The position numbers were made by a program, and so were the translations under genes. Below the pieces are notes generated by a model. That model searched no databases, was not told where the DNA came from, and saw only the letters and a list, made by a program, of their open reading frames with translations. A stretch of 64,000 nucleotides of DNA from a virus. Positions within the stretch are counted from its first letter, which is position 1. Each line of letters starts with the position of its first letter. Shown here piece after piece: positions 7,539 through 64,000 of the stretch. The stretch is from the IMG/VR virus record IMGVR_UViG_3300028901_000317, positions 10,155 through 74,154 of that record; one strand, written 5' to 3'.

Positions 7539-7888
7539 GAAGCTGGGTTCAAGGCCTTTCGATTTAGACCACGTTCAAGATACCGACTTGGGTACCGCTC
7601 GAACGAAATGGGCAACAAAGAAACGCTCCGCCCGAACCAATCTTCGCTTCGATCTGTTCTTCCGAAATCGTCCAGGTTGCAGCCTAAGACGCTACTTCTC
7701 AAGTTTTCCCGTGATCGAGGTGCGGGCTCTGTCTGCTTCGGAAACCGGGGTAATCGCTCACCCCCGTGTGTGCCAGCCCCGGTGGGATGGCGAGCGAAAC
7801 CGCGGCATAACTGGCACCCATGTGAAGACTCCCCTTGGAGGCACTACCCGGCTTGTTGCCGGTGGATGCCGTCCACGGAGAGTCCACT

Positions 7889-9451
7889 GTGGCAAATCCC
7901 ACCCGTCCGATAGTGTCACAACCCGCCCGCCCCACCTCTTCCCTGCGCATCGAGATCATCCCGGTCTCGAAGATCAACCCCGCCCCGTACAACCCGCGGG
8001 TTGCGCTTGTGCCGGGTGACCCCGAGTACCAAAAGCTCGCCCGGTCGCTGGACGAGTTCGGGTTGGTCGAGCCCCTGGTGTGGAACCGCCGCACCAGGAC
8101 GCTGGTGGGCGGGCATCAGCGTTTCACGGTGCTGGTGGCGCAGGGAAAGACCGAGATCCCCGTCAGCGTGGTCGACCTGCCCGTCGAGCGCGAAAAAGCA
8201 CTCAACCTCGCGCTGAACAAGATCACCGGGCGCTGGGACGAGGACAAGCTCGCTCAACTGCTCCATGACTTGTCGATTGTGCCCGACTTCGATCTGGCGA
8301 TCACCGGATTTGAACTGCCCGAGGCCAAGTCGCTGATCGCCGAGCACCTGTTGGCAATGGGCGGCGATGGTGATGACGGCTTTGACGTGGAAGCAGCACT
8401 GGCCGCGGCGGGCCCCACGGTCACCAAGGCGGGTGATCTGATCTTGCTCGGCCGCGACCCGCGCACCCAGCACCGCCTGCTCTGTGGTGACAGCACCAAT
8501 CCCGAGGACGTGCGGCGGCTCATGAACGGCGAGCGGGCCGCGCTGTTTGCCACCGACCCGCCGTACCTGGTCGGCTACGACGGCACCAATCACGTCACCA
8601 GCAAGGCCAACCGGCGCAAGATGGCCGTGCGCAAGCTGAGCAATCCGGCTGGAAAGACTGAAGCTCACAAGGACTGGTCGGCGACCTACGGCATCACCTG
8701 GGACGACGCCAAGGCGAACCCCGATCTGTACGACACGTTCTGCAACGTGGCGATCCAAGAAGCGATCATGCAGAATGCGGCGTGGTATTGCTGGTACGCC
8801 AGCAGCCGTCACAGCATGCTTGAAGCAGTGTGGAAGAAGCATGGCGTGCTACCGCACTGCCAGATCATCTGGGCCAAGAACCGTCCCATCTTGACCCGCT
8901 CCTGGTATACCTGGCAGCACGAACCCTGCTTGATGGGCTGGCTGCAGGGCAAGAAGCCCAAGCGGGCCGACAAGACGGTGCTCTCCACACTCTGGCAGGT
9001 GCCCACATTGGCGACGGGTCCCGACCGTCCGGATCATCCGACTCCAAAGCCTTTGGAACTCTTTGAGATACCGATCCGCCAGCACACTCGCGGCGGGGAC
9101 ATCTGCTACGAGCCCTTCGCCGGGTCTGGCACCCAGATCATGGCCGCGCAACGGCTGGGCCGGCGCTGCTACGCCATCGAGATCAGCCCCCGATATATCG
9201 ATGTCATCGTGCGGCGGTTCATCGCTGCCGCTGGCGCAGATGCCGTGAGCCCGGAGATCGCCAAGAAGTACCGGGTGGTAGCGGAAGAGTCGGCGGCCGC
9301 GGCGTCCAGGCGCGGACGGTCACTGAAGGTCTCCGCCAAGCCCGCGCCATGCCCATCTGAGGCGCAACGGGCGAACCAACCTCCCGAACTCGACGCGGTG
9401 AAATCGGCCAGCGCGTGCCTGCCGACGCCGCCATTGACCAAGGCCGGGTGA
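7889..9451 (+). CDS. ParB-like domain + DNA methyltransferase (N6/N4), copy A
   Basis: INPAPYNPR...LVEPLVWN...GGHQR (ParB-like); TDPPY; HPTPKP; YEPFAGSGTQ. Start set at GTG 7889 by alignment with copy B and a GGAG RBS. Confidence 0.88.
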   Translation: MANPTRPIVSQPARPTSSLRIEIIPVSKINPAPYNPRVALVPGDPEYQKLARSLDEFGLVEPLVWNRRTRTLVGGHQRFTVLVAQGKTEIPVSVVDLPVEREKALNLALNKITGRWDEDKLAQLLHDLSIVPDFDLAITGFELPEAKSLIAEHLLAMGGDGDDGFDVEAALAAAGPTVTKAGDLILLGRDPRTQHRLLCGDSTNPEDVRRLMNGERAALFATDPPYLVGYDGTNHVTSKANRRKMAVRKLSNPAGKTEAHKDWSATYGITWDDAKANPDLYDTFCNVAIQEAIMQNAAWYCWYASSRHSMLEAVWKKHGVLPHCQIIWAKNRPILTRSWYTWQHEPCLMGWLQGKKPKRADKTVLSTLWQVPTLATGPDRPDHPTPKPLELFEIPIRQHTRGGDICYEPFAGSGTQIMAAQRLGRRCYAIEISPRYIDVIVRRFIAAAGADAVSPEIAKKYRVVAEESAAAASRRGRSLKVSAKPAPCPSEAQRANQPPELDAVKSASACLPTPPLTKAG

Positions 9452-9728
9452 AATCCCGCGTCGGCCGCCGGCCACCGTGACGTCGGCGGGAAGGCAAGCA
9501 AGCCGCCCTCCCGGCAGACACGGAGTCGGCGCCGACGTGAGCGCAACTGGCCTCCATGGAAAGACTGGTCCGAACACCGGGCCGCGCACCCCACGGTGAT
9601 TGGGCGCGGCGGGACAGACGAGTCCCGCCCGCCCAGTCCCCGAGGATGGTTCAAGCGGCGGCTGGTGGGCCCTGATCCAGAGTCTTTGGCACTCGCACGT
9701 CCGTGATGAACCAGAAAGAGGTGGCCCC
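9452..9728 (+). other. Conserved structured non-coding spacer, copy A
   Basis: Aligns with 56941-57223 despite frame-breaking indels; long hairpin at 9598-9638. Confidence 0.55.
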
Positions 9729-10388
9729 TTGGCTACCCCACCCCGCGATACCCAGTCATCTGAGCCGGATTGTCGCCCTCCAGCGAAGTCTGGCAAGAAA
9801 GCCCGGTCCGGCAAGAAGGCCAAGCCTCGGAGCGAGGTGCCTGTTGTTCAATTGGCGCGAGATATCGCCAACGGCGTGATCCGTGGCGAGTTGCTCCATC
9901 CTGACGATCGACTGCGGGTCGTCGACCTCTACAGGACGATGGGATACAGCCGCTATCAGATGGCGCAGCAACTTGGCATCACAGAACGGACCGTCTACCG
10001 CGATTTGGACTTGCTGACGTCGCAAGGTCGCATCCAAATGGATGTTGAGACCATCCCCAAGCAGATCGGGGAAGGCTTCCGTGCATTTGACCTGGTCACC
10101 GAACAGCTGACCGCCATGGTGCACAGCAAGGACACGCCCCAGCAACTGAAAATTAAAGCGTTGACGGAGCTCCGCGAGACCGGAGAGGCCCGTATCGCGG
10201 CGGCCATCGAGACGAGTCGCTACATCGTGCCGCCAAAGCAAACCGACGCCGTTGAGACCACGGATGGGTCGGTCAGTCCGCGCGACCTGCTCGCCGAAGC
10301 GGTCCGCATCTGCAACATCGTCGACCTGGGTGCCTCGCGACCGCAGCTTGGAACATCCGCAAAGCCAGAGGATGAAACTGCCCAATGA
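9729..10388 (+). CDS. HTH protein, putative terminase small subunit, copy A
   Basis: HTH motif YSRYQMAQQLGITERTVYRDLD; ATGA overlap with the terminase gene; likely TTG start after a GAGGT RBS conserved in both copies. Confidence 0.6.
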   Translation: MATPPRDTQSSEPDCRPPAKSGKKARSGKKAKPRSEVPVVQLARDIANGVIRGELLHPDDRLRVVDLYRTMGYSRYQMAQQLGITERTVYRDLDLLTSQGRIQMDVETIPKQIGEGFRAFDLVTEQLTAMVHSKDTPQQLKIKALTELRETGEARIAAAIETSRYIVPPKQTDAVETTDGSVSPRDLLAEAVRICNIVDLGASRPQLGTSAKPEDETAQ

Positions 10389-12121
10389 CTCCTTCTCCCG
10401 CCACCCTGGTAACCTTGGAACGGTCGATTCGCGCCGTGCGACGCATGAACGCGGCGCGGTCACCGTGGCACTTTGCCAAGGTGTACCTCCCCCACCATCT
10501 CAACCACGACTTTGGCCGTATGCACCTGGAAGTGCTGGACCTGTTGACGGGCACCACCAAGTCCCGTGGCGGTCGCATCGCGATCGCAGCACCGCGTGGC
10601 CACGCCAAGAGCACGCTGGTGTCACTCGCGTACGTGTTGTGGTGTCTGCTCTACGGCCACGAACGCTTCGTCGTGCTCATCTCGGCAACCAAAGAACTCG
10701 CGGCATCGCACTTGGCGTCGGTCCGCCGCGAACTGGAAGAGAATGTGCTCTTGCAAGAGGACTTCCCGGCCCTTGCACCAGCCATCCGCAGGCGTCGCCG
10801 CGGCAAGTGGCGTGCGTCGGACATCGAACTCCCCCTGATGGACCCGCGGACGGGTCAAGCAGTTTCGGTGCTGGACCGACAATCAAGGTCGCGAGCAACG
10901 TCGCCAGCAAGGTCGCCAGCAACGTCGCCAGCAAGGTCGCCAGCAACGTCGCCCGATCGCGAGCCAGTTGAGGTCGCCAGTGTGAACCTTCGCGCGTACG
11001 GCGCTGGCCAACGCATCCGCGGCGTCCGCAATGGTCCCGTCCGCCCCAGCCTGATCATTGTCGATGACCTGGAGAGCCAAGAACACGTCCAGCACGAGGA
11101 CAATCGGCGGAAGCTGCGCGATTGGTTTGATCGCACTCTGCTCAAGCTCGGCCAGCCCGATACCAACGTCATTGTCGTCGGCACCGTCCTCCACCGCGAC
11201 AGCCTCTTGGCCAACCTCGTGGGCGTGGGCTCGTCCGATGCGCGGCCCGCTCCCGGCTGGACCGCCCGGGTCTACAAGGCGATCAAATCTTGGAGTATCC
11301 GTCCAGAACTGTGGAAACAGTGGCAGAGTGTGTACTCCGGGCTGGAACTCAAAGATCCGAGCGAGGGCCCTGCCCGAGCTGAGGCATTCTTTCAAGCAAA
11401 CCGGGAGGCCATGCTCGAAGGAACGCGAGTGTTGTGGCCGACACGAGAGAGCTATGAGCAGCTCATGATCGAGCGGTTTCGCGAGGGTGAGTCGGCGTTC
11501 GCCGCCGAGAAGCTCAATGAGCCGATCGACCCGCAACTGTGCCTGTTTGCCAAGTGTGATCTGCGCTACTGGGATGACACGTATCCCGATGTCGCTGCGC
11601 TGCTGGGATCACAGCCGGGGCCCTGGCGTCTCTATGGTGCATGCGATCCGAGCCTCGGCAAAGCCGATGGCGACGACAGCGCGGTGGTGTGCGTACTGGA
11701 ACATCCCCGGACGCGGATGCTTTACGTGACCGCGGCCGAAATCGGCAAGCGCAATCCCAGTGAGCTCGTCGCGCTGATCCTGAACGTGATGCCCGGGTAC
11801 AACTTCCAGGATTTTGGTGTGGAGGTGAACCAGTTCCAGGAGCTGCTCGCGACTCAGCTTGAACAGGCGGCCGAGCGCCAGCGGCCCAACCTGCCAATCA
11901 AGCGAATCCAAAGTCGCGGCGACAAGGTGGCCCGCATCAAAGGCCTTGAGCCGCTCGTCGCCTCGGGCCGGATTCAGTTCTCACGGCGGCACACGAAACT
12001 GGTCGAGCAGTTGCGGTCGTTTCCCACCGCCCGACACGATGATGGGCCCGACGCACTGGAGATGGCAGTGTCGCTCACGCTCGGGTACAGCGGGCCGATG
12101 ACGGTGAGAGGAGTAGTGTGA
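10385..12121 (+). CDS. terL: Phage-type terminase large subunit, copy A
   Basis: Walker A variant APRGHAKST, Walker B LIIVDD, VIVVGT coupling motif, nuclease domain GACDPS...DDSA...EVNQ...HDDGPDA. Confidence 0.85.
   Translation: MTPSPATLVTLERSIRAVRRMNAARSPWHFAKVYLPHHLNHDFGRMHLEVLDLLTGTTKSRGGRIAIAAPRGHAKSTLVSLAYVLWCLLYGHERFVVLISATKELAASHLASVRRELEENVLLQEDFPALAPAIRRRRRGKWRASDIELPLMDPRTGQAVSVLDRQSRSRATSPARSPATSPARSPATSPDREPVEVASVNLRAYGAGQRIRGVRNGPVRPSLIIVDDLESQEHVQHEDNRRKLRDWFDRTLLKLGQPDTNVIVVGTVLHRDSLLANLVGVGSSDARPAPGWTARVYKAIKSWSIRPELWKQWQSVYSGLELKDPSEGPARAEAFFQANREAMLEGTRVLWPTRESYEQLMIERFREGESAFAAEKLNEPIDPQLCLFAKCDLRYWDDTYPDVAALLGSQPGPWRLYGACDPSLGKADGDDSAVVCVLEHPRTRMLYVTAAEIGKRNPSELVALILNVMPGYNFQDFGVEVNQFQELLATQLEQAAERQRPNLPIKRIQSRGDKVARIKGLEPLVASGRIQFSRRHTKLVEQLRSFPTARHDDGPDALEMAVSLTLGYSGPMTVRGVV
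10885..10956 (+). repeat. 12-bp tandem repeat x6 (AA[G/C]GTCGCCAGC) inside terL
   Basis: Encodes SRATSPARSPATSPARSPATSP; shorter and degenerate in copy B. Confidence 0.9.
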
Positions 12122-12419
12122 ATGGTCAGAGGTCATTGATCGACCTCAGATACCTGGCGCTTCACCTCCGCATGCATGCGTCAACGCTCGCCGAATTCAC
12201 TCAGGTTGCTGAAACCGCGTCAGACTCGCGGGATGGTTCCGTCTGACAGGGGCGACCCATCGTGCTTCAAACTTCAGGTACGACGGCTCCGACTGTGGCT
12301 GTCGCGTCCCAGACCTTTGTGTTGACCGTCACACTCGTTTAGACTTGCCACCCAAGCTCGCCCGCCTTTGCGTGATCGAACGCGTAGCCAAACGGGCTTG
12401 AAGCGGAGGGTCAATCGCG

Positions 12420-13496
12420 ATGCAACGGGAATGGTGGGCTCAGGAACCTTGGTGGGATGACCCAAAGACAGCACAAATGCTCGGTTGCAGCTTGACGGAC
12501 CTTCGGATCGCGGCTGATCACATGATGCAGCACTTTGGACGCGATTGGTGGTCGACGATCAAGGTGCGGCATCGCCCTCACCCCCTGGCTCAATCTTTGT
12601 TAGCACGAGGATGGGTCGCCGCTCACGCCATCTGGTCGGTGGGTTGGCAGGTCCACCAGCTCAATGGCTGCGAAGGATTCGCGTCAAAGCTCCGCGAGCT
12701 GAAAGAGGGCGATAAGGCCGAAAGTATTCGCTTCGAAATGCACGTTGCAGAACTGCTTGTACGGCGCGGTTACCACGTCACATTTCCGCGTGAGCAAGCG
12801 GTCAAGACGCCGGACATTCTGGCCAGTCGAAACGATCGCGTCGTCGCGGTCGAGTGCAAAAAGCTTGGGAAGAGCGATGTTGATCAGTGGGCACGGGGAT
12901 TGATGAGCCTCGCCTCACTCGACCTTCCACATCACGGCAATCCGGATCTCGACATTGAGCTTGCGGATGATCTCACGTTTCTAAGAATGGACAAGCCTAG
13001 ATGGAATGACGAGCTTTTGACAGCACTCCACGACCAGATGCGATCGTCGCTACAAACGGCGCTTGAACGATTGACTCCCCCCTGTCAAATCTCGATCCAC
13101 GGCATCGCACGGGTTTCGATCAAGCCGAGCAAAACCGGAATGGGCTCTGTGTCGGGCGGACCGCAATGGCCAGCGGCTGATCTTCGTCGCGTTGTGGAAT
13201 ACGTGTTCAAGTCGTGCGAAAAGTTCTCAACAGAAACACCTGGAGTCTTGGCGTTTCAATGCGAGCTCTCGCCTGGTGCCGCGTTGCTCAAGGCAGTTAC
13301 CACAGCAATCGAACGCTCAGCCGATCCATCCGAGTTCATCGATCGACTCGGGGGAATCGTAATGGTTCCTTTGATGCCCGCCGGCCCGTGGGGAAAGCCG
13401 GTCGCGAGCGAATGCTCAGGCCACGCGTCAAATCCACTTGTCGGGGATGTGCTCGGCGCTCTGACAGACGTGAATGCCCACCGCAGTTTGGAGTGA
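12420..13496 (+). CDS. Hypothetical protein with PD-(D/E)XK nuclease-like motif, copy A
   Basis: FEMHVAELL...KTPDILAS...VAVECKK; close paralog at 59743-60798. Confidence 0.65.
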   Translation: MQREWWAQEPWWDDPKTAQMLGCSLTDLRIAADHMMQHFGRDWWSTIKVRHRPHPLAQSLLARGWVAAHAIWSVGWQVHQLNGCEGFASKLRELKEGDKAESIRFEMHVAELLVRRGYHVTFPREQAVKTPDILASRNDRVVAVECKKLGKSDVDQWARGLMSLASLDLPHHGNPDLDIELADDLTFLRMDKPRWNDELLTALHDQMRSSLQTALERLTPPCQISIHGIARVSIKPSKTGMGSVSGGPQWPAADLRRVVEYVFKSCEKFSTETPGVLAFQCELSPGAALLKAVTTAIERSADPSEFIDRLGGIVMVPLMPAGPWGKPVASECSGHASNPLVGDVLGALTDVNAHRSLE

Positions 13497-13513: not shown

Positions 13514-14257
13514 TCATCGGCTACGTGATTCGGATTCCCCGGGCTCAAGACCGGTGGTGGGTCGATCCGAACGGACCAGCATTTGACGAGCCCAATCGCG
13601 CCATCGCTCGGTGTCACCTCGGAATGCAATCGTCTGCAGAGCCTCCATCGACTTGGCATCCTTCTTACCCACTTTGCACTGCAGTCGTGTCAGTGCCTGA
13701 ATCGTCTGGATGTGCTCAGGACTCACTTCAAGGGCAGTGCGATACGTGCCGATCGCTTCGTCAATGTGTCCGGCTCGCTCCAGCGTGAGCGCGAGATTCA
13801 TCCGCGGATCGGGGTTCCCCGCCATGAGCTTGCGTGCCCATTCAAACTCCCCCGCTGCTTCATAGAGCATCCCGCGATTGAGGAAGACGACACCCAGGTT
13901 GTTGTGCGCCGGACCGTGGTACAGATCTGCCGAGAGCGCGTCGCGCAGCAATCGCTCGGCCTTGGCATCGTCAATGCCGATCAGATCGGCAGCCTCGCGT
14001 GTGAGTTTTTCGGCTTGGAGCGGACTGCGTTCCTGCTCCTTCATTTCTGCGTAGGGTCCGCGTACTGACGAGGCGCACCCGGCCATCCCGAGCGGCCCCG
14101 CGCCTGCGAACAGAGCACCAGTTGCAACTACAAGTGCCCACCACCAATCGGCGCCCCCGCACACCATGCGCACGACGGACCGCACAGCCTGAATCGCCGT
14201 CCCAAGCGGTTGGCTTTGCCGCGATCCACCCGGTGAACTGGTCTTCAAAGTTTTCAT
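13514..14257 (-). CDS. TPR lipoprotein, pilotin-like (PilF/PilW type), copy A
   Basis: Lipobox-like LGMAGC; TPRs HGPAHNNLGV, PRMNLALTL. Start trimmed to MKTLK because the longer ORF overlaps the upstream gene. Confidence 0.75.
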   Translation of the reverse strand: MKTLKTSSPGGSRQSQPLGTAIQAVRSVVRMVCGGADWWWALVVATGALFAGAGPLGMAGCASSVRGPYAEMKEQERSPLQAEKLTREAADLIGIDDAKAERLLRDALSADLYHGPAHNNLGVVFLNRGMLYEAAGEFEWARKLMAGNPDPRMNLALTLERAGHIDEAIGTYRTALEVSPEHIQTIQALTRLQCKVGKKDAKSMEALQTIAFRGDTERWRDWARQMLVRSDRPTTGLEPGESESRSR

Positions 14258-14334: not shown

Positions 14335-14952
14335 TCACCGCAGCTCTGCCGATGCACGACCTCCCGTAGCGGGCACCGGTGGTGAAGCGGCGCTTCCCAC
14401 ATCGATGCCGCCGCGCGGCCGAGTGTCTACAAAGGATGTCATCGAACAACTGACGCGATACCCGCGCGAGCGATCCATGGGAGATGCGGTCCGGGTCAGG
14501 TCGAGCCGCGAGATGGTCCACAGCGGCTCACGCTCGCGCCACGCCGCCAGAAAGCGTCCCAGCTCGTGGGGCTCAAGGCCATCAAGGGTGATACGAAACC
14601 CACGCCGCACGTACCCGCTGGGCGTAGAACTCTCCGCATCTGCGACCGTGTCCCGCAACACGCTGGAATTCAGTCCGGCCCTCTGGAGCACCGCCGTCAC
14701 CAGTGTTGACGCGTCCAGGCGCGCGTGAGCATCGTCGCTCCCTTGCGCAACGGGCGCGAGTTCGGCCAGCCTTGCGTACGCCGCCGCCGTGGTTGCCACC
14801 TGCACGCAGGATTCGGCTGCTTCGCCCCGGCGTCCAGAAGCGTCGGACGCCAGCGCCCAGCCTCGCCACAACAGCGCCAGCATCACGCCGCAGGCAACCA
14901 TGCTCAATGGCACCGAATTCGAGAGTGCTCCAAGGCGCCAGAATCGCGTCAT
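14335..14952 (-). CDS. GspM/PilO-like inner-membrane protein, copy A
   Basis: N-terminal TM followed by a ferredoxin-like segment (GFRITLDGLEPHELGRFLAAW...ISRLDL); position in the operon. Confidence 0.6.
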   Translation of the reverse strand: MTRFWRLGALSNSVPLSMVACGVMLALLWRGWALASDASGRRGEAAESCVQVATTAAAYARLAELAPVAQGSDDAHARLDASTLVTAVLQRAGLNSSVLRDTVADAESSTPSGYVRRGFRITLDGLEPHELGRFLAAWREREPLWTISRLDLTRTASPMDRSRGYRVSCSMTSFVDTRPRGGIDVGSAASPPVPATGGRASAELR

Positions 14953-16025
14953 TGGCCACCTCCGGGTTGCCCAGCCGACTGTGCACGTGAAATCGCGCCA
15001 AGCGTCGCGGCCCCTCGTCCCTGTCCCGGCGTCGGCACCGCAGCACGCGACGCTGCGGCTTTGGGTTGGGCCGGTGTGTCGCGATCGATACGCACAAGGG
15101 TGGTCCGCACCGTCGCCCGGTCGCCGGCCATCGAGATCTGCGGCTGCTCAAGTGACCATCCCGGCACCGTCCGCAGCGCCTCGGTCAGCTTTGACGCGTC
15201 ATCGAGCGCGCCCACAGATCCAACCAGCCGCACGCTCGACTCGCCCACGGAAAGCGATTCGATGCGCGTTTCCACCGTCCGGGGCCAGGCACGCAGCACA
15301 TCCTGGAGCGACAGTCCCGCATCCTCGGGACGCTGAGCGCGGATCCCATCGCCCCGCTCGCGAAGCAACGCCGAGTATGCCAAGGCAAGCCGCGCCGGCG
15401 AATCCGTGGACGACCCCGCCTGAGACAGTTGTTTCTCGAATCGCCCGGGCATGAGGGACTCGGCAGGATGCAGGTCCAGGGCCTGCCTCGCGATCTGATC
15501 CTGAGCTTCGAGAAGTCGGACACGCGCTTGAGCCCCCGACCACGCTCGCACGTGGAATCCAACCGCCGCCAGGCCCAGCACCACCGCGGCACACCACAGG
15601 CCCGCCGCGGTCACCGCCGATCGCGCCCGGCGAACAATCCGAGGCTCGTAGATCCCGTGCAACAGATTCAGTTGGCCGATCACCCCAGGCGGCACCATCT
15701 CACGCAGATGCGATGGTGCCGACGCGGGCCCAAGCGTCTGCGCCTGAACATCCAGTGTGTCGAGATCGGCGCACAGCGCGACGCATGCGAGCGAGCCAAG
15801 GCCCGGCACCTCCACCAGCGTCGTGTGGTAGAGCGTCGAGTCGATGGGGATCGCTTCGGAAATCTGCTCGGCCAAGTCTGCGGCGAGCGGCCCGCGCTCC
15901 CGCCGTGGCGCCCCGGGAAGCCCGACATCACGGTCTGGGATCAAAACCCAGTAGAAGCGCTCCGCAGGCCAGCGCAGATAGATCTGGCCATCGTTCATCG
16001 AGTGACCATCACGCGGAGCGCTCAT
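14949..16025 (-). CDS. GspL/PilN-like protein, copy A
   Basis: Central TM; PilN-like IESLSVGESSVRLVGSV...LTEAL...WSLEQPQI; overlapping starts and stops with neighbours. Confidence 0.62.
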   Translation of the reverse strand: MSAPRDGHSMNDGQIYLRWPAERFYWVLIPDRDVGLPGAPRRERGPLAADLAEQISEAIPIDSTLYHTTLVEVPGLGSLACVALCADLDTLDVQAQTLGPASAPSHLREMVPPGVIGQLNLLHGIYEPRIVRRARSAVTAAGLWCAAVVLGLAAVGFHVRAWSGAQARVRLLEAQDQIARQALDLHPAESLMPGRFEKQLSQAGSSTDSPARLALAYSALLRERGDGIRAQRPEDAGLSLQDVLRAWPRTVETRIESLSVGESSVRLVGSVGALDDASKLTEALRTVPGWSLEQPQISMAGDRATVRTTLVRIDRDTPAQPKAAASRAAVPTPGQGRGAATLGAISRAQSAGQPGGGQ

Positions 16026-56940: not shown

Positions 56941-57223
56941 CACCGCGCGTCGGCTGTCTGCCACCGTGGATGTCGGCGGGGGAGGCGAAGAAACCCTCCC
57001 TTCTCCACAGTCGCGGGGCCGGCGCCGACGTGAGCGCAACTGGACACGTTGGAAAGACTGGCCGTGAACACCAGGCCGCGCACCCCACGGTGACTGGGCG
57101 CGGCGGGACCGACGAGTCCCGCCCGCCCAGTCACCCGAGGGTGGTTCAAGCCGCGGTTGGTGGGCCGTGACCCAGAGTCTTTGGCACTCGCATGTCCGTG
57201 ATGAATTAGAAAGAGGTGGCCCC
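56941..57223 (+). other. Conserved structured non-coding spacer, copy B
   Basis: Hairpin GGTGACTGGGCG-C-GGCGGGAC-N6-GTCCCGCC-CGCCCAGTCACC at 57089-57135. Confidence 0.55.
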
Positions 57224-57883
57224 TTGGCTACCGAACCCTCCGATACCCAGCCATCCGAGCCAGAACACCGCCCTCGTGTGGAGTCTGGCAAGAAAGCCCG
57301 GTCCGGCAAGAAGGCCAAGCCTCGCAGCGAGGTGCCGGTTGTTCAATTGGCAAAAGAGATTGCCAACGGCGCGATCCTGGGCGAGTTGCTCCATCCCGAC
57401 GATCGACTGCGCTTGGTCGACCTCTACCGGACGATGGGATACAGCCGCTATCAGATGGCGCAACAACTTGGCATTACTGAACGCACCGTCTACCGCGACT
57501 TGGACTTGCTCACGTCGCAAGGCCGCATCCAGATGGATGTCGAGGCTATCCCCAAGCAGATCGGGGAAGGCTTTCGCGTCTATGAGTTTGTCACCGAACA
57601 GCTGACCGCCATGGTGCACAGTAAAGACACGCCGCAGTCACTGAAGCTCAAAGCGCTTGCAGCACTACGCGAGACCACTGATAACCGCATCGCGGCCGCC
57701 ATCGAGACGAGTCGCTACATCGTGCCGTCTAAGCAAGCCGAACTCGTCGAGAACGCCGACGGGCCGGTCAATCCGCGTGAGCTGCTTGAGGAAGCAGCCC
57801 GCATCTGCAACATCGGGGAACTTGGCGCTGCGCGACCCCAACTTGGCACATCCGCATCATCAACGGACAAAACCGCCCCATGA
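57224..57883 (+). CDS. HTH protein, putative terminase small subunit, copy B
   Basis: Paralog of 9729-10388; same RBS and TTG start; overlaps terL. Confidence 0.6.
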   Translation: MATEPSDTQPSEPEHRPRVESGKKARSGKKAKPRSEVPVVQLAKEIANGAILGELLHPDDRLRLVDLYRTMGYSRYQMAQQLGITERTVYRDLDLLTSQGRIQMDVEAIPKQIGEGFRVYEFVTEQLTAMVHSKDTPQSLKLKALAALRETTDNRIAAAIETSRYIVPSKQAELVENADGPVNPRELLEEAARICNIGELGAARPQLGTSASSTDKTAP

Positions 57884-59592
57884 CCACTTCCATCGCCAGC
57901 CCCGTCGTTCTGCAGCGGTCGATTCGCACCGCGCGCCGCATGACCGGGTCTCGGTCACCGTGGCACTTTGCCAAGCTGTACCTCCCCCACCACCTCAACC
58001 ACGACTTTGGCCGTATGCACCTGGAGGTATTGGACCTGCTGACCCGTACCACCGAGTCACGCGGGGGTCGCATCGCGATCGCTGCGCCGCGTGGGCACGC
58101 CAAGAGCACGCTGGTGTCGCTGGCGTATGTGCTGTGGTGTCTGCTCTACGGCCATGAACGCTTTGTTGTGCTCATCTCGGCCACCAAGGAACTCGCCGCG
58201 TCGCACCTGGCGTCGGTGCGTCGAGAACTCGAAGAGAACGTGCTGTTGCAAGAGGACTTCCCGGCGCTGGCTCCTGCCATCCGCAGGCGCCGCCGCGGCA
58301 AGTGGCGAGCGTCGGACATCGAACTCCCGCTCGTGGATCCGAGCACTGGCCGCGCGGTGTCGGTGCTGGACCGGCAGGCAAGGTCGCCAGTCGCGTCGTC
58401 GGTAACGTCGCCAGCGACACCTTCAGCTGGCGCGCGGGTCGATGTCGCCCGGGTGAACCTCCGTGCTTACGGCGCTGGCCAGCGCATCCGCGGTGTGCGC
58501 AATGGTCCGGTCCGCCCCAGCTTGATCATCGTCGACGATCTGGAAAGCCAAGAACACGTCCAGCACGAGGACAACCGGCGCAAGCTGCGCGAGTGGTTTG
58601 ATCGGACGCTGCTCAAGCTCGGCCAGCCCGATACCAACGTCATCGTCGTCGGCACCGTGCTCCACCGCGACAGTCTCTTGGCCAATCTGGTCGGCGTCGG
58701 CTCCTCCGACGCGCGGCCTGCGCCCGGCTGGACCACGCGGGTCTACAAGGCGATCGAGTCATGGAGCACGCATCCCGAGTTCTGGAAGCAGTGGCAGAGC
58801 CTGTACGCCGGGCTGGACCAGAAAGACCCCAGCGAAGGACCGACGCGGGCCGAAGCGTTCTTCCAAGCCAACAAGGCCGCGATGCTTGAAGGCGTCCGCG
58901 TGCTCTGGCCGGCCCGCGAGAGCTACCAGCATCTCATGATCGAGCGGTTTCGCGAGGGGGAGTCGGCATTCGCCGCCGAGAAGCTCAACGAACCGATCGA
59001 CCCGCAGCTGTGCCTGTTTGCCAAGTGCGAGATTCGCTACTGGGACGACACGCACCCCGATGTCGCGGCGCTGCTTGGGTCACAGCCGGGGCCTTGGCGT
59101 CTCTATGGCGCATGCGACCCAAGCTTGGGGAAGGCCGACGGCGATGACAGCGCGGTGGTGTGCGTCTTGGAGCATCCACGCACGCAGATGCTGTATGTCA
59201 CCGCCGCGGAGATCGGCAAGCGCAATCCCAGCGAACTCGTCGCGCTGATCTTGAGCATCATGCCCGGGTACAACTTCTACGAGTTCGGCGTGGAGGTGAA
59301 CCAGTTCCAAGAACTGCTCGCCCAAGAGCTCGAACAGGCCGCCGAGCGGCAGCGGCCAAATCTCTCGATAAAGCGCGTCCACAGCCACGGTGACAAGGTC
59401 GCACGGATCAAGGGCCTCGAGCCGCTGGTCGCGGCGGGAAGGATTCAGTTCTCCCGCAAGCACACAACGCTGATCGAGCAGTTGAGGGCGTTTCCGACCG
59501 GTCGGCATGACGACGGGCCGGATGCGCTTGAGATGGCGGTGTCGCTCACACTCGGCTACGCAGGTCCGATGACGGTGAGAGGAGTCGTGTAA
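57880..59592 (+). CDS. terL: Phage-type terminase large subunit, copy B
   Basis: APRGHAKST, LIIVDD, GACDPS and HDDGPDA as in copy A. Confidence 0.85.
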   Translation: MTTSIASPVVLQRSIRTARRMTGSRSPWHFAKLYLPHHLNHDFGRMHLEVLDLLTRTTESRGGRIAIAAPRGHAKSTLVSLAYVLWCLLYGHERFVVLISATKELAASHLASVRRELEENVLLQEDFPALAPAIRRRRRGKWRASDIELPLVDPSTGRAVSVLDRQARSPVASSVTSPATPSAGARVDVARVNLRAYGAGQRIRGVRNGPVRPSLIIVDDLESQEHVQHEDNRRKLREWFDRTLLKLGQPDTNVIVVGTVLHRDSLLANLVGVGSSDARPAPGWTTRVYKAIESWSTHPEFWKQWQSLYAGLDQKDPSEGPTRAEAFFQANKAAMLEGVRVLWPARESYQHLMIERFREGESAFAAEKLNEPIDPQLCLFAKCEIRYWDDTHPDVAALLGSQPGPWRLYGACDPSLGKADGDDSAVVCVLEHPRTQMLYVTAAEIGKRNPSELVALILSIMPGYNFYEFGVEVNQFQELLAQELEQAAERQRPNLSIKRVHSHGDKVARIKGLEPLVAAGRIQFSRKHTTLIEQLRAFPTGRHDDGPDALEMAVSLTLGYAGPMTVRGVV

Positions 59593-59742
59593 AATGATCA
59601 ATCGGTGATTCAGATCGACCCCAAGTGGAAGACTTTTGTGTTGACCGTCACACGCGTTTAGAATCGCATTCTCAGCACTCTCGCCTTTTTGCATGATTGC
59701 GGGGACGGAGTCAAGCGGGCTCGAAGCGGAGGGTCAAACGGG

Positions 59743-60798
59743 ATGCAACAGGAATGGTGGGCGCAGGAGCCTTGGTGGAACGATCTAAAGACAGCCCAAT
59801 CGCTGAGTTGCAGTTTGACGGAACTTCAGATCGCGGCTGAACACATGATGCAGCACTTTGACCGTCATTGGTGGGCGACGATCAATACGCAGCATCGCCC
59901 CCACCCCCTGGCTCAAGCTTTGGTGGTCAGAGGATGGGTCGCCGCCCACGCGATCTTGTCAGTCGGTTGGCAGATCCACCAACTCAATAGCTGCGAGGGA
60001 TTCGCAGCAAAGCTCATCGAACTGAAAGAGGGCGATAAGGCCGACAGCGTCCGATTCGAGATGCGGGTCGCCGAACTGCTCGTTCGGAAGGGCTTTCACG
60101 TCACATTTCCGCGTGAGCGAGCCGTCAAGACTCCGGACATTCTGGCCAGTCGAAACAATCGTGTCGTCGCTGTCGAGTGCAAGAGGCTTGGCGAAAGCGG
60201 GGTTGATCAGTGGGCGCGGGGATTAATGGGCTTCACCTCACTCGACCTTCCCGGTCACGGCAATGCGGATGTTGACATCGAGCTTGCCGATGATCTCACG
60301 TTTCTGAGAATGGAAAGATTGGGATGGAATAAAGCACTTTTGGAAGCGCTCCGCGACCAGATGCGTTCGTCGCTGCAGACAGCACTTGAGAATGTAAATC
60401 CGCCCTGTCAAATCTCGATCGACGGCATCGCGCGGGTTTCGATTAAGGCGAGCAACACGGGAATGGGCTCTATCTCGGGTGGACAGCAATGGCCGGCAGC
60501 GGATCTTCGTCGCGTGGTCGAATATGTGTTCACGTCGTGCGAGAAATTTTCGGCAGACACGCCTGGAGTCTTGGCGTTTCAGTGCCAGCTCTCGCCCGGG
60601 GCCGCGTTGCTCAAGGCTATCACCAAAGCCATCGAACGCTCAGCAACCCCATCTGAATTGATTGATCGACTCGGAGGGATTGTGATTCTTCCCATGATGC
60701 CTTCCGGGCCATGGGGAAAGCCGGTTGCAAGCGAATGCTCATGCCACGCGTCCAATCCATTTGTTCGCGGCGTACTCGACGCGCTCACCAACCCATAA
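59743..60798 (+). CDS. Hypothetical PD-(D/E)XK-like protein, copy B
   Basis: KTPDILAS...VAVECKR; start MQQEWW aligned to copy A, GGAGG RBS. Confidence 0.65.
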   Translation: MQQEWWAQEPWWNDLKTAQSLSCSLTELQIAAEHMMQHFDRHWWATINTQHRPHPLAQALVVRGWVAAHAILSVGWQIHQLNSCEGFAAKLIELKEGDKADSVRFEMRVAELLVRKGFHVTFPRERAVKTPDILASRNNRVVAVECKRLGESGVDQWARGLMGFTSLDLPGHGNADVDIELADDLTFLRMERLGWNKALLEALRDQMRSSLQTALENVNPPCQISIDGIARVSIKASNTGMGSISGGQQWPAADLRRVVEYVFTSCEKFSADTPGVLAFQCQLSPGAALLKAITKAIERSATPSELIDRLGGIVILPMMPSGPWGKPVASECSCHASNPFVRGVLDALTNP

Positions 60799-60838
60799 AT
60801 GCCCATCGCGACTCGTTTCGACAAGCCGCTCGTCCACG

Positions 60839-61561
60839 TCACCGGCTCCGCGACTCCAATGCGTCTGGCCCCAGAGCGCTGTCGGGTCGATCCGCTCGCA
60901 CCAGCATTTGACGCGCCCAATCGCGCCAGCGCTCGCTGTCGCCGCGCATCGCGATCGTCTGCAACGCTTCCAGCGTCCGCGCATCCTTCTTCCCGCTCTT
61001 GCATTGCAGCCGCGCAAGCGCTTGTATCGTCTGAATATGGTCCGGCGCGACCTCCAGCGCGGTGCGATACGTGCCGATCGCGTCATCGACATGCCCGGCC
61101 GTCTCCAGCGTGAGCGCGAGGTTCATCCGCGGGTCCGCATGCCCCGGCATCAACTTGCGCGCCCACTCAAACTCGCCCGCCGCTTCATACAACTTCCCCT
61201 GCTTCAAAAAGATCACGCCCAGGTTGTTGTGCGCTGGCCCGTGATACAGATCTTCCGTCAACGCCTCGCGCAACAGCGACTCGGCCTTTGCATCATCTTT
61301 CCCTATCAGCGCGGCCGCCTCCTGCGTCAGTCCCTCAGCCTTGAGCGGGCTCCGCGCCCCTTCAGTAAGCGGCGCGTAAGGGCCTTGATGCGCTGTGCAC
61401 GCTCCGATCCACGACGCGGCACCTATCGCGGCTGCGAGAACGACGCCCCGTGCCACTCGGAGCGTTCGACCTGCCCACACCCCGGCGCGGGACTGACAAG
61501 AGAACACGTCCGTCCCTTGCTGCGTGCTTGAAATGATCTTCGACATTGAGATATCGCTCAT
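60839..61561 (-). CDS. TPR lipoprotein, pilotin-like, copy B
   Basis: Lipobox-like WIGAC; HGPAHNNLGV; paralog of 13514-14257. Confidence 0.75.
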   Translation of the reverse strand: MSDISMSKIISSTQQGTDVFSCQSRAGVWAGRTLRVARGVVLAAAIGAASWIGACTAHQGPYAPLTEGARSPLKAEGLTQEAAALIGKDDAKAESLLREALTEDLYHGPAHNNLGVIFLKQGKLYEAAGEFEWARKLMPGHADPRMNLALTLETAGHVDDAIGTYRTALEVAPDHIQTIQALARLQCKSGKKDARTLEALQTIAMRGDSERWRDWARQMLVRADRPDSALGPDALESRSR

Positions 61562-62064
61562 GGGCGTTCATCCTTCACAAACACGCACGCCATGCTCAGG
61601 CTGGCGCGATATGCGGTGCTCCGGTCCATCGGTGACGCGACGCGAGCAAGATCAATCCGCGACACCGTCCACAATGGCTGCGACTTCTTCCACGCACTCA
61701 GAAACCGTCCCAGCTGCGCCGGCTCCACCGGGTCAAGCGTCACCCGAAACCCCCGCCGCATGTATCCTCCGCTCAGCGCGACATCACCCTCGGCGATCAC
61801 ATCGCGCAGCACGCTTCCACTCAGCCCCGACTGCATCAGCGTGGACGACACCAGCACCGAGCCATCAACCTGCGGCGCACCGACCGCCGCGCTCGCAGGC
61901 ATCGCCACCAGCCGAACAAGTTCAGCAGCCTGCAGTTCCGCCGCGGCTCGTACATCTTCCGCCTCATCACGCTCCGACTGCGCGGCCGCCGCCGACCACC
62001 CACCCCACACGAGCACTCCAATAGAAAGACACAACGCAAGAACCGCACACGCGAGTGACTTCAT
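61558..62064 (-). CDS. GspM/PilO-like protein, copy B
   Basis: TM + GYMRRGFRVTLD...LGRFLSAW...PLWTVSRIDL. Confidence 0.6.
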   Translation of the reverse strand: MKSLACAVLALCLSIGVLVWGGWSAAAAQSERDEAEDVRAAAELQAAELVRLVAMPASAAVGAPQVDGSVLVSSTLMQSGLSGSVLRDVIAEGDVALSGGYMRRGFRVTLDPVEPAQLGRFLSAWKKSQPLWTVSRIDLARVASPMDRSTAYRASLSMACVFVKDERP

Positions 62065-63062
62065 CGAGTGCCTCCCACGCGTGTCAGTTCCATCGGCTTC
62101 GCGGCGCGTCCCGAATCGTTCGACGCAGGCAACGCCTGCCCCAGCGCACGCGACGATCGCGCGGCACGATTCAGCGTCGTCCGAATACTCACGCGACTCC
62201 CTTGCGCTGCCACCTGCGGCTGCTCCGCATCCCAGCCCGACATTCCCTTGAGCGCCTCCGTCAACACGCTCGCCTCGTCAAACGTTGCCACACTGCCCGC
62301 AAGCCGAATCGATGTCTCGCCCACCGCCACCGAATCCATCCGCGTCTCCAGGGCTTTGGGCCATCGGGCGAGCAGCCCGGCCATCGCGATGGCTGCGTCC
62401 GCCGGGCGAGCAGCAGACGCCGGTTCACCCCGCCCGCGCGCGAGTCGGGTGACCACGGCGCTGAGCTGTTCGATCGCATTCGTCTCACCGGTGCTCCCGG
62501 CCTCATCCATATGACCGATCGCTGTCGTGGTGATCGCGTTGCTCGCAATATCCCGTGCAGCCTGGTTCGCCTCAATCGCCGCCCGCCGATCTGTCGATGC
62601 CCTGAGATGCAGCCCAACCGCCACGATCCCGAGCAAGGCCGCGGCGACCCACATCTCACTTGTCCACACCGCTCTGCGCGCACTCCGCACACACGCCGGC
62701 TCATACAAGCCTTCCAGCAGATTCAGCGAGGCGACTGTTTCGGGCGGAACGAGCTCGGCAAGACTTGCCGGCGCCGCGTCCGGCCCCAGCGTGCGTGCCG
62801 AGTCGGGCAGTGATTCAAGGTCGGCGATCGGGACAGCGCACGCCAGCACGCCGCGTTCACCCAAAGACACAAAGACGGCGTGCACCTCCGCCACGTCGAC
62901 CGGCAATTCATCGGCCAGTCGTGATTCAAGCGTGCCGCGCGGCGGCACTGTGCCCACAACACCGATTTCACCAAGCTTCTCCGGAGCGAGCACCACCCAA
63001 TAGAACCGTGACGCGGGCCAGCGGAGATGCAAGGGGCTCGTGATCGTGTCCGGCGTGCTCAT
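62061..63062 (-). CDS. GspL/PilN-like protein, copy B
   Basis: LRWPASRFYWV shared with copy A; PilN-like C-terminus. Confidence 0.62.
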   Translation of the reverse strand: MSTPDTITSPLHLRWPASRFYWVVLAPEKLGEIGVVGTVPPRGTLESRLADELPVDVAEVHAVFVSLGERGVLACAVPIADLESLPDSARTLGPDAAPASLAELVPPETVASLNLLEGLYEPACVRSARRAVWTSEMWVAAALLGIVAVGLHLRASTDRRAAIEANQAARDIASNAITTTAIGHMDEAGSTGETNAIEQLSAVVTRLARGRGEPASAARPADAAIAMAGLLARWPKALETRMDSVAVGETSIRLAGSVATFDEASVLTEALKGMSGWDAEQPQVAAQGSRVSIRTTLNRAARSSRALGQALPASNDSGRAAKPMELTRVGGTR

Positions 63063-63592
63063 CGGGCACCTCCGCCCGAGGGTGGGGTCATCGACGGTTC
63101 ACGGAGCGACAGACGCTCAACGCGGGTGCCATCGACAAACTCGATCGCTTCGTTCGTCAGAGCACGCACGGTAAAGCTGGAGAGCGTCTCACCCTGTCCG
63201 ATCAGAATGACGCGGTCGGTCTCCAGGTCGTACAGCGCGGCACGCAGGGGCGCGTCCTTGCTGCCATCACCGGAAATCCCCAGCAGTTGGAGCTTGAGTG
63301 GCGGAGGCGGCGGAGCAACTGCGATCACATCCTTCACCGCGGGCGCCGGCGGCGGTGTCCACAGCGCCACATCAAAGACCCTCGCATCGATACCAGCAGC
63401 AACACTCGGTTCGATTGGCGTTCCCGAAAGCTCACTCCCCAAGTCCGGAGAACTCAACCCCGAGCGGCGGGCCGACAACCAGATCACCCCTCCGGCCGCG
63501 ATCACGCAGCAGATCACCCCAACGCGGACGATCCGGCGACGCAAGGCGTGCAGCCGTTCGACCGGATCGTGTTGAGAGGTGATCGTTGCCAT
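63059..63592 (-). CDS. GspC/PilP-like protein, copy B
   Basis: TM, PPPPP linker, LKLQLLGISGDG...AALYD. Confidence 0.6.
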   Translation of the reverse strand: MATITSQHDPVERLHALRRRIVRVGVICCVIAAGGVIWLSARRSGLSSPDLGSELSGTPIEPSVAAGIDARVFDVALWTPPPAPAVKDVIAVAPPPPPLKLQLLGISGDGSKDAPLRAALYDLETDRVILIGQGETLSSFTVRALTNEAIEFVDGTRVERLSLREPSMTPPSGGGAR

Positions 63593-63609
63593 TTGGTTTC
63601 GCCGCTCGC

Positions 63610-64000
63610 CTATTCCTCCGTACCGCTGATGACCCGCTCGACTTCGAGCATGGTGGTGACGCCCAGTTCACTCAGCCGTCGACCTTCATCCATCAGCGAA
63701 CGCATTCCCGCGGCGCGGGCCGCTGTCCGCAGGTCAGCCCCCGTCGCACCCCTGACGACCCGATCTCGGAGCCCGTCATCAACGGTGAGCAGTTCAAACA
63801 CTCCAACCCGGCCCGCGAAGCCCGAGTGCAGGCAGACATTGCATCCGCGACCTGCGCATGAAGCATGACAACGTCGGACCAACCGCTGCGCAAGCACCGC
63901 CGACAGCGACGCCGCCACCAGATACGACTCCACGCCCAGGTCCACGAGCCTCGTGAGGGCACCCGCAGCATCATTGGTGTGCAGTGTCGAGAGCACCAAG
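63610..64000 (-). CDS. gspE: GspE/PilB ATPase, 3' part, copy B (starts beyond the window)
   Basis: VLSTLHTNDAAGALTRLVDLGVESYLV...GRVGVFELL. Confidence 0.92.
   Translation of the reverse strand, partial: LVLSTLHTNDAAGALTRLVDLGVESYLVAASLSAVLAQRLVRRCHASCAGRGCNVCLHSGFAGRVGVFELLTVDDGLRDRVVRGATGADLRTAARAAGMRSLMDEGRRLSELGVTTMLEVERVISGTEE

Follow-up and report, generated by a model that had tools for sequence, protein, structure and literature searches.

Probable tandem islands at a tRNA-Ser gene combine a capsid-less terminase backbone, variable defence genes and a reduced type II secretion cluster

Background

What brings a phage-type terminase without capsid genes and a type II secretion system (T2SS) without pseudopilins next to each other, twice within one stretch of DNA? 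The question is raised by the IMG/VR record IMGVR_UViG_3300028901_000317, a contig of 74,570 bp treated as viral, of which positions 10,155 to 74,154 were analysed; this stretch of 64,000 nucleotides is called the window, and coordinates without a prefix refer to it. In an original prediction, made from the sequence alone, the same gene order was seen in two copies: genes for a ParB-methyltransferase, a helix-turn-helix (HTH) protein, a large terminase subunit (TerL) and a PD-(D/E)XK protein converge on T2SS-like genes, followed in one copy by an RHS gene. We propose that the locus consists of two integrative islands in tandem at the 3' end of a tRNA-Ser(GGA) gene, each a mosaic of a terminase backbone, a defence slot, a PD-(D/E)XK open reading frame (ORF) and a cargo of reduced T2SS and RHS genes. 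We regard this explanation as probable, although well short of certain.

Two copies of one gene order

The ORFs of the window were listed and then scanned with Pfam, PHROGs and PADLOC, which bore out the described gene order in both copies. Copy B occupies 55144-64000 and follows copy A through to GspE, where the window ends. The proteins of the two copies share 40-88% of their amino acids, and self-BLAST limits the homology of their DNA to the shared modules. A third copy, about 80% identical to A, is present on a metagenome contig (L163), and the junction between the PD-(D/E)XK ORF and the following TPR (tetratricopeptide repeat) gene is unbroken homologous DNA in all three.

The possibility that the assembler had fabricated the arrangement was raised together with the original prediction. 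The DNA of the window is also found within a 182-kb JGI metagenome contig, which spans copy A and the left part of copy B and whose end lies inside a CRISPR array. Logan contigs from two runs of one bioreactor study cover 54805-55680 with zero differences, and a Logan contig from a separate sludge study joins a different spacer to 54804-55031; since contigs of two studies bridge the array end and the DNA upstream of the methyltransferase of copy B, this link is real. The secretion genes of copy B are borne, in addition, by a 5-kb contig of a metagenome-assembled genome (MAG; L246). As far as it can be tested, the arrangement is not a chimera. The host, sampled in bioreactor and sludge metagenomes, is probably a planctomycete.

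The secretion cluster

The secretion genes of the two copies are the following.

13514-14257, minus strand: TPR lipoprotein of copy A, in a pilotin-like position (Pfam TPR; lipobox LGMAGC)
14335-14952, minus strand: GspM-like bitopic membrane protein of copy A, with one N-terminal transmembrane segment
14949-16025, minus strand: GspL-like protein of copy A (profile search, AlphaFold2 fold)
16022-16615, minus strand: GspC-like protein of copy A, with a transmembrane helix, a proline-rich linker and an HR/PilP-like beta domain (AlphaFold2 fold)
16612-18336, minus strand: GspE ATPase of copy A (Pfam T2SSE, E 2e-106; Walker A GPTGSGKT)
18346-20736, minus strand: GspD secretin of copy A (Pfam Secretin and Secretin_N)
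60839-64000, minus strand: reduced T2SS of copy B (Pfam), with the TPR gene at 60839-61561, M at 61558-62064, L at 62061-63062, C at 63059-63592 and GspE from 63610, cut by the window end

The TPR ORF of copy A had originally been read too long, and the lipoprotein starts near 14257. Copies A and B are 81% identical in GspE, 71% in the TPR protein and 40-47% in the M-, L- and C-like proteins. On the 5-kb MAG contig, GspC-like and GspL-like proteins identical to those of copy B over the aligned parts are followed by a full GspE and by a secretin of at least 719 amino acids, which is where gspD of copy B had been predicted.

The GspM-, GspL- and GspC-like ORFs of copy A have no match in Pfam, and their assignment comes from other comparisons. 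Among 5.8 billion proteins, only three are word-level relatives of the GspL-like protein; when a profile was built from five sequences, it retrieved 649 representatives, of which the distant ones lie within full T2SS operons, and the confidently modelled C-terminal domain matches the periplasmic domains of XcpY, PulL and EpsL with TM-scores of 0.63-0.71. The C-terminal domain of the GspC-like protein was modelled with a pLDDT of about 90; its fold matches have TM-scores of 0.64-0.75 overall, and the best are the HR domains of GspC (3oss_C, 0.72) and PulC (6hcg, 0.75) as well as PilP. The GspM-like protein is assigned by synteny and by a weak tblastn match to the M gene that holds the same position in a canonical operon (L252).

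Such canonical planctomycetal operons (L252, L253 and L257) have the order gspD-E-F-G, four pseudopilin-like genes, a gene for a GspC-like protein of 159 amino acids, L, M and a TPR lipoprotein gene. When the operon of L252 was compared with the window gene by gene in tblastn, matches were found for D (46% identity), E (57%), the closing TPR gene (57%) and C, L and M (30-41%), and GspF, G, H, I, J and K had no match anywhere in the 74.5-kb contig. This gene-for-gene correspondence, together with the missing F to K and in agreement with the models, makes the cluster a deletion derivative of the canonical operon: it is a planctomycetal T2SS reduced by the loss of gspF and all pseudopilin genes. 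Of the components that define a T2SS it has the secretin GspD, the ATPase GspE and the platform partners GspC, GspL and GspM, and it lacks GspF and the pseudopilins GspG-K. No prepilin peptidase gene was noticed nearby, and no separate search was aimed at the peptidase. The term "minimal T2SS" in the original prediction thus holds for the gene set, which is indeed reduced, but not for a new design.

The reduction is not peculiar to the window. At least seven lineages share the reduced gene set (A, L163, B/L246, L244, L250, L255 and the P0006 locus), and in every cluster examined, that of L244 being joined by L256, gspE is followed directly by the gspC-like gene. A search of two samples of 401 Planctomycetota genomes each, one phylum-wide and one from Phycisphaerae, with few genomes shared, and of five TerL-bearing genomes revealed no intact reduced cluster of the window's clade. 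One member of Phycisphaerae (G700) has a decayed cluster with the TPR, L, C and GspE genes (L289, that is G700:C14:159000-178999, at 8500-12900 of the locus), in which the L gene contains a TGA stop and the secretin gene is cut to its last 96 or so codons. Six genes of the gspF/pilC type lie elsewhere in the same genome, which shows only that a reduced cluster and gspF/pilC paralogues can coexist.

Three observations were made on canonical and reduced operons along the way. Another Phycisphaerae genome (G575) possesses three complete paralogous T2SS operons of the D-E-F-G...K-C-L-M-TPR type (L286, L287 and L288). Directly upstream of the secretin of one canonical operon lies a gene of the SUKH/SMI1_KNR4 family, known for immunity to polymorphic toxins (L252:1-479). 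Near a B-like reduced cluster and an MPTase-PolyVal gene, an ORF of 764 amino acids encodes a fusion of a PNP_UDP phosphorylase domain with a complete RNA polymerase alpha subunit (L255:7854-10148).

The RHS protein and its counterparts

Beyond the secretin of copy A two genes are transcribed divergently from the secretion cluster.

21032-28237, plus strand: RHS-repeat protein of 2401 amino acids with a Sec-type N-terminus (Pfam RHS_repeat, E 3e-16)
28242-28769, plus strand: candidate immunity gene for a protein of 175 amino acids, assigned by position, starting 4 nt past the RHS stop codon

The RHS protein has the architecture expected of its class, a shell of RHS/YD repeats closed by a DPxG motif (DPTGMWG at residue 2192) and a variable tip, here of about 204 amino acids, which matches no Pfam entry and no known family. 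The continuation of copy A into a secretin and a divergent RHS gene was described correctly; the immunity gene that was to complete the pair is a candidate by position, and the 175-residue ORF has no match in Pfam or PHROGs.

The secretin side could be read in three reduced clusters, and a giant divergent gene is present in all of them, with RHS repeats confirmed in two. The giant protein of L256, of at least 2546 amino acids, contains RHS repeats (E 8e-13) and shows no BLAST similarity to the RHS protein of copy A; that of the P0006 locus has 3167 amino acids and no Pfam match on record. The reduced T2SS would most likely serve to export the RHS protein from the periplasm, with the secretin of the island as the outlet. 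A resident T2SS could provide GspF and the pseudopilus in trans, or they may be dispensable.

The terminase backbone

On the other side of the secretion cluster, and converging on it, lie the genes of the terminase module.

7835-9451, plus strand: ParB_N-DNA methyltransferase fusion of copy A (Pfam ParB_N and N6_N4_MTase; phrog_498, E 4e-115)
9452-9690, plus strand: conserved non-coding stretch with a hairpin, upstream of the HTH gene of copy A (alignment with copy B)
9600-10388, plus strand: HTH protein of copy A in the position of a small terminase subunit (TerS), its stop codon overlapping the TerL start (Pfam HTH_11 and HTH_23)
10385-12121, plus strand: TerL of copy A (phrog_38, E 4e-96, residues 14-572; Terminase_6C)
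12420-13496, plus strand: PD-(D/E)XK-like ORF of copy A (weak Mrr_cat match, E 0.007)
55144-60798, plus strand: backbone of copy B (Pfam), with the ParB-methyltransferase at 55144-56940, the HTH gene at 57167-57883, TerL at 57880-59592 and the PD-(D/E)XK ORF at 59689-60798

The backbone proteins of the two copies are 79-88% identical, the methyltransferases 88%. TerL retains its Walker A (AAPRGxAKS) and Walker B (DD.E) motifs and the nuclease Asp residues in at least 93% of 108 family members; a comparison with PDB sequences gave no match. TerL of copy A is eight residues longer than that of copy B and contains an insertion of SPAT/SPAR-like peptide repeats at residues 169-191 or so (10889-10957). 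The HTH protein has weak tblastn matches to an ORF of about 227 amino acids that precedes TerL in related loci. A, B and L163 all keep the PD...ECK motif of the PD-(D/E)XK-like ORF. A group of proteins encoded after TerL elsewhere (c6) was considered as orthologous to this ORF and rejected, the identity being 10-17% and the motif context different.

The DNA at 9400-9760 is more similar between the copies than the flanking coding DNA (90% mean identity over 372 alignment columns). The stretch upstream of the HTH gene differs between them by frame-breaking indels and has an in-frame stop in copy B. The whole window gave no Rfam match at gathering thresholds, so that the stretch is not a known RNA; it is a candidate pac or regulatory site. 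Inside the copy-B stretch there is also a near-palindrome of 63 bp (57081-57143).

Is this backbone an oddity of one contig? Relatives of TerL with 33-45% identity were collected from genome, viral and metagenome collections, and the closest are nearly all from Planctomycetota MAGs, chiefly Phycisphaerae. The ORFs of 124 loci were clustered; the backbone family comprises 117 TerL-bearing loci. The sole conserved neighbours are the ParB-methyltransferase (85 loci), the HTH ORF of about 227 amino acids (72), a large serine recombinase (61), DUF2924 (18) and a HARE-HTH protein (12). The ParB-methyltransferase lies directly upstream of TerL in 64 of the 77 loci with enough upstream DNA, and a serine recombinase is found within 5 kb downstream of TerL in 34 of 61 loci with that much sequence. 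The commonest order is a compact methyltransferase > HTH > TerL > recombinase; an inverted layout, with the recombinase upstream and the cargo between it and the methyltransferase, is seen in the window and in L006, L074 and L193. Several MAGs hold two copies of the cassette.

As a positive control we used 78 viral contigs with a more distant TerL. TerL was called in 64 of them, and in 38 of these it is followed by a conserved portal-like gene of about 527 amino acids and then by genes of about 400 and 356 amino acids, in the usual pattern of portal, protease and capsid. The portal-, protease- and capsid-like proteins of the control match one of 123 family loci and nothing in the window. No ORF of the window has a structural match in PHROGs or Pfam, and the portal, major capsid and tail genes that would mark a tailed prophage are missing beside the terminase; the four core genes are intact and stand without virion genes. 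The claim that the terminase module is capsid-less is thus upheld by a method able to detect a capsid or portal gene. We conclude that the backbone of ParB-methyltransferase, HTH protein, TerL and serine recombinase is a widespread capsid-less cassette in Planctomycetota; no published description of it was found in the literature searched.

It could be argued that we are looking at decaying prophages, or at a segmental duplication of one, in which the terminase genes are functionless leftovers. TerL is clearly of phage origin, and Wolbachia phage WO has a comparable layout, in which a ParB_N-methylase gene is followed by small ORFs, the terminase and a slot for variable PD-(D/E)XK nucleases, and DUF2924 stands by a serine recombinase (PMC10299305). 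Yet TerL has a ratio of nonsynonymous to synonymous divergence (dN/dS) of 0.09 between the copies and, as said, keeps its catalytic motifs throughout the family. Dozens of genomes have preserved the same four genes and no structural gene, an outcome that random decay would not yield, and the different cargo and mosaic histories of the two copies show that they are not a recent duplication. We consider decay very unlikely.

An equally small chance may be given to a host function of the cassette, in defence or akin to a gene transfer agent, for example as a methylase-protected ATP-dependent nuclease directed against foreign DNA. The cassette lies among defence systems in both copies, defence genes recur beside it in distant members of the family (hsdMSR in L082, a QatC-like gene in L050), and the pairing of a methyltransferase with an ATPase-nuclease would suit such a function. 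On the other hand, no PADLOC model matches TerL or the HTH protein, the cassette is tightly linked to the serine recombinase and to tRNA genes, and it is present in several copies per genome, as a mobile element would be.

Insertion site and element boundaries

Where do the elements begin and end? A gene for tRNA-Ser(GGA) was found by ARAGORN at L248:12748-12835, 215 bp left of the contig start. It lies between housekeeping genes (cyclopropane-fatty-acid synthases, a desaturase, sigma-70 and superoxide dismutase) and a small RAMA/GIY-YIG gene located left of the recombinase of element A, to which the 3' end of the tRNA gene points. A block of 206 bp, beginning within the tRNA gene 7 nt from its 3' end, shares 78% identity with the following part of the window (blastn of L248 against the contig, and alignment):

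33851-34056, plus strand: A/B junction block, directly left of the recombinase of element B

There is no further copy of the block in the contig, and it shows no DNA similarity to distant relatives. Because the block at the tRNA 3' end recurs directly left of the second recombinase, the simplest reading is that two related elements are integrated in tandem at tRNA-Ser. Element A is about 44.2 kb long, from -10374 of the window to about 33850, and contains defence genes, the terminase module, the secretion genes with RHS, and a tail with an HNH gene, a DUF3800 gene and a transposase remnant; element B starts at 33851 and runs beyond the contig end, its right flank being reached only as far as the secretin on the 5-kb contig. 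The unit therefore does not start at 7819, as was first thought: element A begins at tRNA-Ser, some 10.4 kb before the window starts. The layout put forward originally, att-[recombinase<DUF2924<HTH]-[defence cargo]-[MTase>HTH>TerL>nuclease]-[T2SS-like]-[RHS>immunity], agrees with the whole of element A, from tRNA-Ser to the repeated block at 33851.

Four related loci with a DUF2924-type recombinase also end toward a tRNA-Ser gene (L005, L171, L061 and L178). Direct repeats of the tRNA 3' end were not detected in related loci, as is expected with serine recombinases. As in known satellites, an integrase stands at the end of the island and a specific site is used; here the enzyme is a serine and not a tyrosine recombinase. 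The trio of genes to which it belongs is found upstream of copy B, as had been described:

34137-37311, minus strand: recombinase trio of element B (Pfam), with the large serine recombinase at 34137-35876, DUF2924 at 35873-36448 and HARE-HTH at 36445-37311

The corresponding trio of element A, 70-78% identical in amino acid sequence, was predicted beyond the left end of the window together with hsdR, and both are indeed there: to the left of position 1 follow the Septu genes PtuA and PtuB, HsdR, an ORF of unknown function, HARE-HTH, DUF2924 and the large serine recombinase (L001).

Separable modules and their histories

All genes shared by A and B have dN/dS values of 0.08-0.50, in line with the original claim that they are intact and maintained despite their divergence; the values are 0.08 for the secretin, 0.11 for the methylase, 0.15 for GspE, 0.18 for the recombinase, 0.19-0.28 for the PD-(D/E)XK-like ORF and 0.33-0.50 for the C-, L- and M-like genes. 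All are maintained under purifying selection. Synonymous divergence (dS) between A and B is uneven, being 0.4-0.9 in the recombinase and terminase modules and 1.2-1.6 in the secretion genes, and the comparison of L163 with A gives the opposite pattern, 1.58 for TerL and 0.3-0.85 for the secretion genes. The modules thus differ in history, as expected for mobile elements that recombine.

The difference in dS opens the way to another explanation, according to which the T2SS/RHS clusters are resident chromosomal genes and a smaller element, reaching from the recombinase trio to the nuclease ORF, inserted twice beside them. The lower divergence of the backbone would fit, as would the compact layout that is commonest in the family and the existence of reduced clusters without TerL next to kinase and fatty-acid genes. 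However, the only recombinase-proximal junction blocks are those at the tRNA and at 33851, so that the T2SS and RHS genes of copy A lie between them; the junction between nuclease and TPR genes is continuous in A, B and L163; and two independent insertions would be required, in the same position and orientation, beside two paralogous clusters. We consider this explanation unlikely.

How closely are terminase and secretion genes bound to each other? Within 10 kb of TerL relatives, GspE, secretin or RHS genes occur in none of 160 genome and viral loci. The linkage was found elsewhere on a single metagenome contig, L163, which gives three close copies in all. The family, contrary to the original prediction, is thus not defined by the coupling of TerL, T2SS and RHS. 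Among the five reduced clusters whose far side could be read, three adjoin the nuclease-TerL module (A, B and L163), and two lack both TerL and the nuclease ORF; a Ser/Thr kinase gene is found there in L244/L256 and unrelated genes in L255. With the giant gene present in three of three clusters, the TerL module in three of five and no linkage in 160 loci, the steady partner of the reduced T2SS is the giant RHS-type protein, not the terminase. The adjacency of terminase and T2SS is a feature of one narrow lineage and not a conserved functional unit.

These counts also bear on the idea that TerL and the secretin/GspE cluster form one machine that exports or transfers the DNA of the island without a capsid. 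Their adjacency in three diverged copies could be taken as a hint of it, and so could the lack of capsid, replication and conjugation genes in the island. Nevertheless, TerL without T2SS in 160 related loci, reduced T2SS without TerL, secretion genes that are plain orthologues of those of protein-secreting systems, and a giant RHS-type gene instead of TerL as the conserved partner all speak for separate modules, and we consider a joint machine extremely unlikely. Packaging and secretion belong to separable parts, whose genes would travel together without working together.

The defence slot and the right end of element A

Between the recombinase trio and the methyltransferase both elements contain a slot filled with defence genes.

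1-3395, minus strand: right part of the cargo of element A, with the end of PtuA, hsdS at 127-1383 and hsdM at 1380-3395 (Pfam Methylase_S, N6_Mtase and HsdM_N)
4319-7457, minus strand: further cargo of element A, with an XRE/IrrE (RmrA-like) gene at 4319-5530, a QatC-like gene at 5527-6873 and an ORF of unknown function at 6870-7457 (Pfam Peptidase_M78 with HTH, QueC)
37684-46314, plus strand: type I-C genes of element B, namely cas3, cas5d, csd1/cas8c, cas7 and a cas1-containing ORF (Pfam Cas3_HD, Cas_Cas5d, Cas_Csd1, Cas_Cas7 and Cas_Cas1)
46539-54898, plus strand: CRISPR array of element B with 129 repeats and 128 spacers (TRF; repeat and spacer count)

In element A the slot holds a type I restriction-modification (R-M) system with nested Septu genes and a QatC-like operon. 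PtuA, PtuB and hsdR extend to the left of the window, where Pfam recognises HsdR, HNH and AAA_21 in L001; PADLOC assigns PtuA (E 2e-86), PtuB (E 9e-59), QatC (E 4e-48) and RmrA (E 1e-34). The Septu pair lies between hsdR and hsdS/hsdM of the R-M system (L001:8345-10284 to window 1-3395). In element B the slot is filled by the type I-C CRISPR-Cas system with its 128 spacers, which probably includes cas2, judging by position. A tblastn search for an hsdR scar between trio B and cas3 (37250-37750) with HsdR of element A gave no significant match (E 0.39). The slot is swappable, the R-M/Septu/Qat set and CRISPR-Cas replacing each other in the two tandem copies; variable defence cargo and tRNA insertion are both what one expects of capsid-less elements with ParB-methyltransferase, TerS, TerL and serine recombinase.

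The 128 spacers had only chance matches of 17-21 nt to the contig outside the array and to all fetched loci, and no spacer or locus indicated a helper phage. A match of 18 nt within TerL of L032 and L084 was dropped, since at most 25 of 34 positions agree. In the sludge run of the other study, the spacer at 53382-53411 is linked through a different spacer of 28 nt to the last repeats (53382-54804), and the content of the array thus varies between strains near its methyltransferase-proximal end.

29182-33392, strand not assigned: right end of element A, with an HNH gene at 29420-30100, a DUF3800 gene at 30113-31228 and a truncated transposase gene at 32520-33392 (Pfam, self-BLAST)

The HNH and DUF3800 genes are flanked by a direct repeat of 68 bp (29182-29249 and 32006-32073, 81% identity), which may mark a small nested insertion.

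Possible functions and objections

The recombinase trio most likely integrates and excises the island. No primase, replicase or origin was recognised among the ORFs scanned in A or B, in both of which several small ORFs are unannotated, and no conjugation genes are recognisable in the island; this leaves TerL, the HTH protein and the conserved non-coding stretch as the only candidates for a means of horizontal transfer. By the likeliest route, TerL and the HTH protein would package the DNA of the island into capsids of a helper phage, and the methylase could protect the transferred DNA. Element A, with about 44 kb, is about as large as a typical tailed-phage genome.

Several points weigh against our explanation. 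Transfer of the islands and dependence on a helper phage would be deductions from gene content; among the assembled contigs no helper phage, packaged DNA or excised circle was seen, and the HTH protein matches no TerS family in Pfam or PHROGs. Left of 33851 there is no remnant of the 3' half of the tRNA, the score being no better than that of shuffled sequence. Recombination of attP with attL or attR is not a reaction of canonical serine integrases, which makes the entry of a second element beside the first hard to account for. As for secretion, to our knowledge no mode of action has been demonstrated for a T2SS without GspF and pseudopilus; the predicted complex of the GspC-like protein with the N0 domain of the secretin scored 0.30 against a mark of 0.34, which gives no verdict either way; and a folded RHS shell may exceed the size of the secretin channel. 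Finally, the toxin role of the RHS tip and the immunity role of the 175-residue ORF are candidate functions, suggested by architecture and position. In its strongest form, namely a satellite of a new type that combines its own terminase with helper capsids and whose cargo is a self-sufficient secretin/ATPase exporter of RHS without GspF or pseudopilus, the proposal appears quite unlikely.

Comparison with known systems

The islands resemble phage-inducible chromosomal islands (PICIs) and their capsid-forming variety (cf-PICIs) in being integrative; they have an integrase at one of their ends, phage-derived packaging genes and cargo directed against phages, and they lack a full set of virion genes. 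However, cf-PICIs have capsid, portal and scaffold genes and classical PICIs have TerS only, whereas in the islands described here a complete TerL is combined with an HTH protein at the place of TerS, and capsid, portal and scaffold genes are lacking. The tyrosine integrase of PICIs is replaced by a large serine recombinase with DUF2924, and no replication module is recognised. A dependence on helper phages, as in PICIs and cf-PICIs, would here be deduced from gene content. Phage WO shares with the islands the gene order mentioned above and the DUF2924-recombinase pair, a likeness of layout taken from the published description; the sequences are not close. The phage genome continues with portal, head, baseplate and tail genes, of which the islands have none (PMC10299305).

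Canonical planctomycetal T2SS operons (L252, L257 and those of G575) contain orthologous D, E, C-, L-, M-like and TPR genes in the same order; the islands lack the genes that stand there between E and C, namely gspF, gspG and four minor pseudopilin genes, and their cluster is paired with a giant RHS gene and resides on a mobile island. RHS toxins delivered by the type VI secretion system (T6SS) or by Sec (WapA type) have in common with the island protein the repeat shell, the DPxG closure of the core, the variable tip and the small ORF that follows. In contrast to T6SS toxins, the island RHS is accompanied by no PAAR, VgrG or T6SS genes, and has instead a Sec-type signal and a dedicated secretin/ATPase cluster. 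We know of no described case of an RHS protein exported by a T2SS, and a full-text literature search found none in Planctomycetes.

The closest parallel for the association with giant genes comes from Omnitrophota, in which conserved T2SS-like loci precede giant genes (bioRxiv 10.1101/2023.11.21.568195). There, too, a secretin/GspE-type locus of the PVC group lies by the gene of a secreted protein of very large size, whose beta-helical shell is RHS-like; these loci encode over 10 subunits, gspF and pilin-like genes among them, and the proteins far exceed the island RHS in size (bioRxiv 10.1101/2023.11.21.568195). The island system, on the other hand, is reduced, includes a classical RHS protein with a toxin-type tip and a candidate immunity gene, and lies as a whole on a mobile island.

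Conclusions

For the terminase backbone, the analysis adds a defined insertion site in Planctomycetota, tRNA-Ser, and shows that it is able to carry large cargo: a secretion system, a toxin-type gene and a complete CRISPR-Cas system with 128 spacers. The most interesting piece is a T2SS that has lost gspF and the pseudopilins and yet is under purifying selection in several lineages, beside giant genes. It raises the question whether the core of secretin, GspE and the C-, L- and M-like proteins borrows the pseudopilus of a resident system or works without one, and whether RHS toxins leave the cell by this route. If RHS proteins were indeed exported without GspF and a pseudopilus, this would be a secretion mechanism not yet described for machines of the T2SS class.

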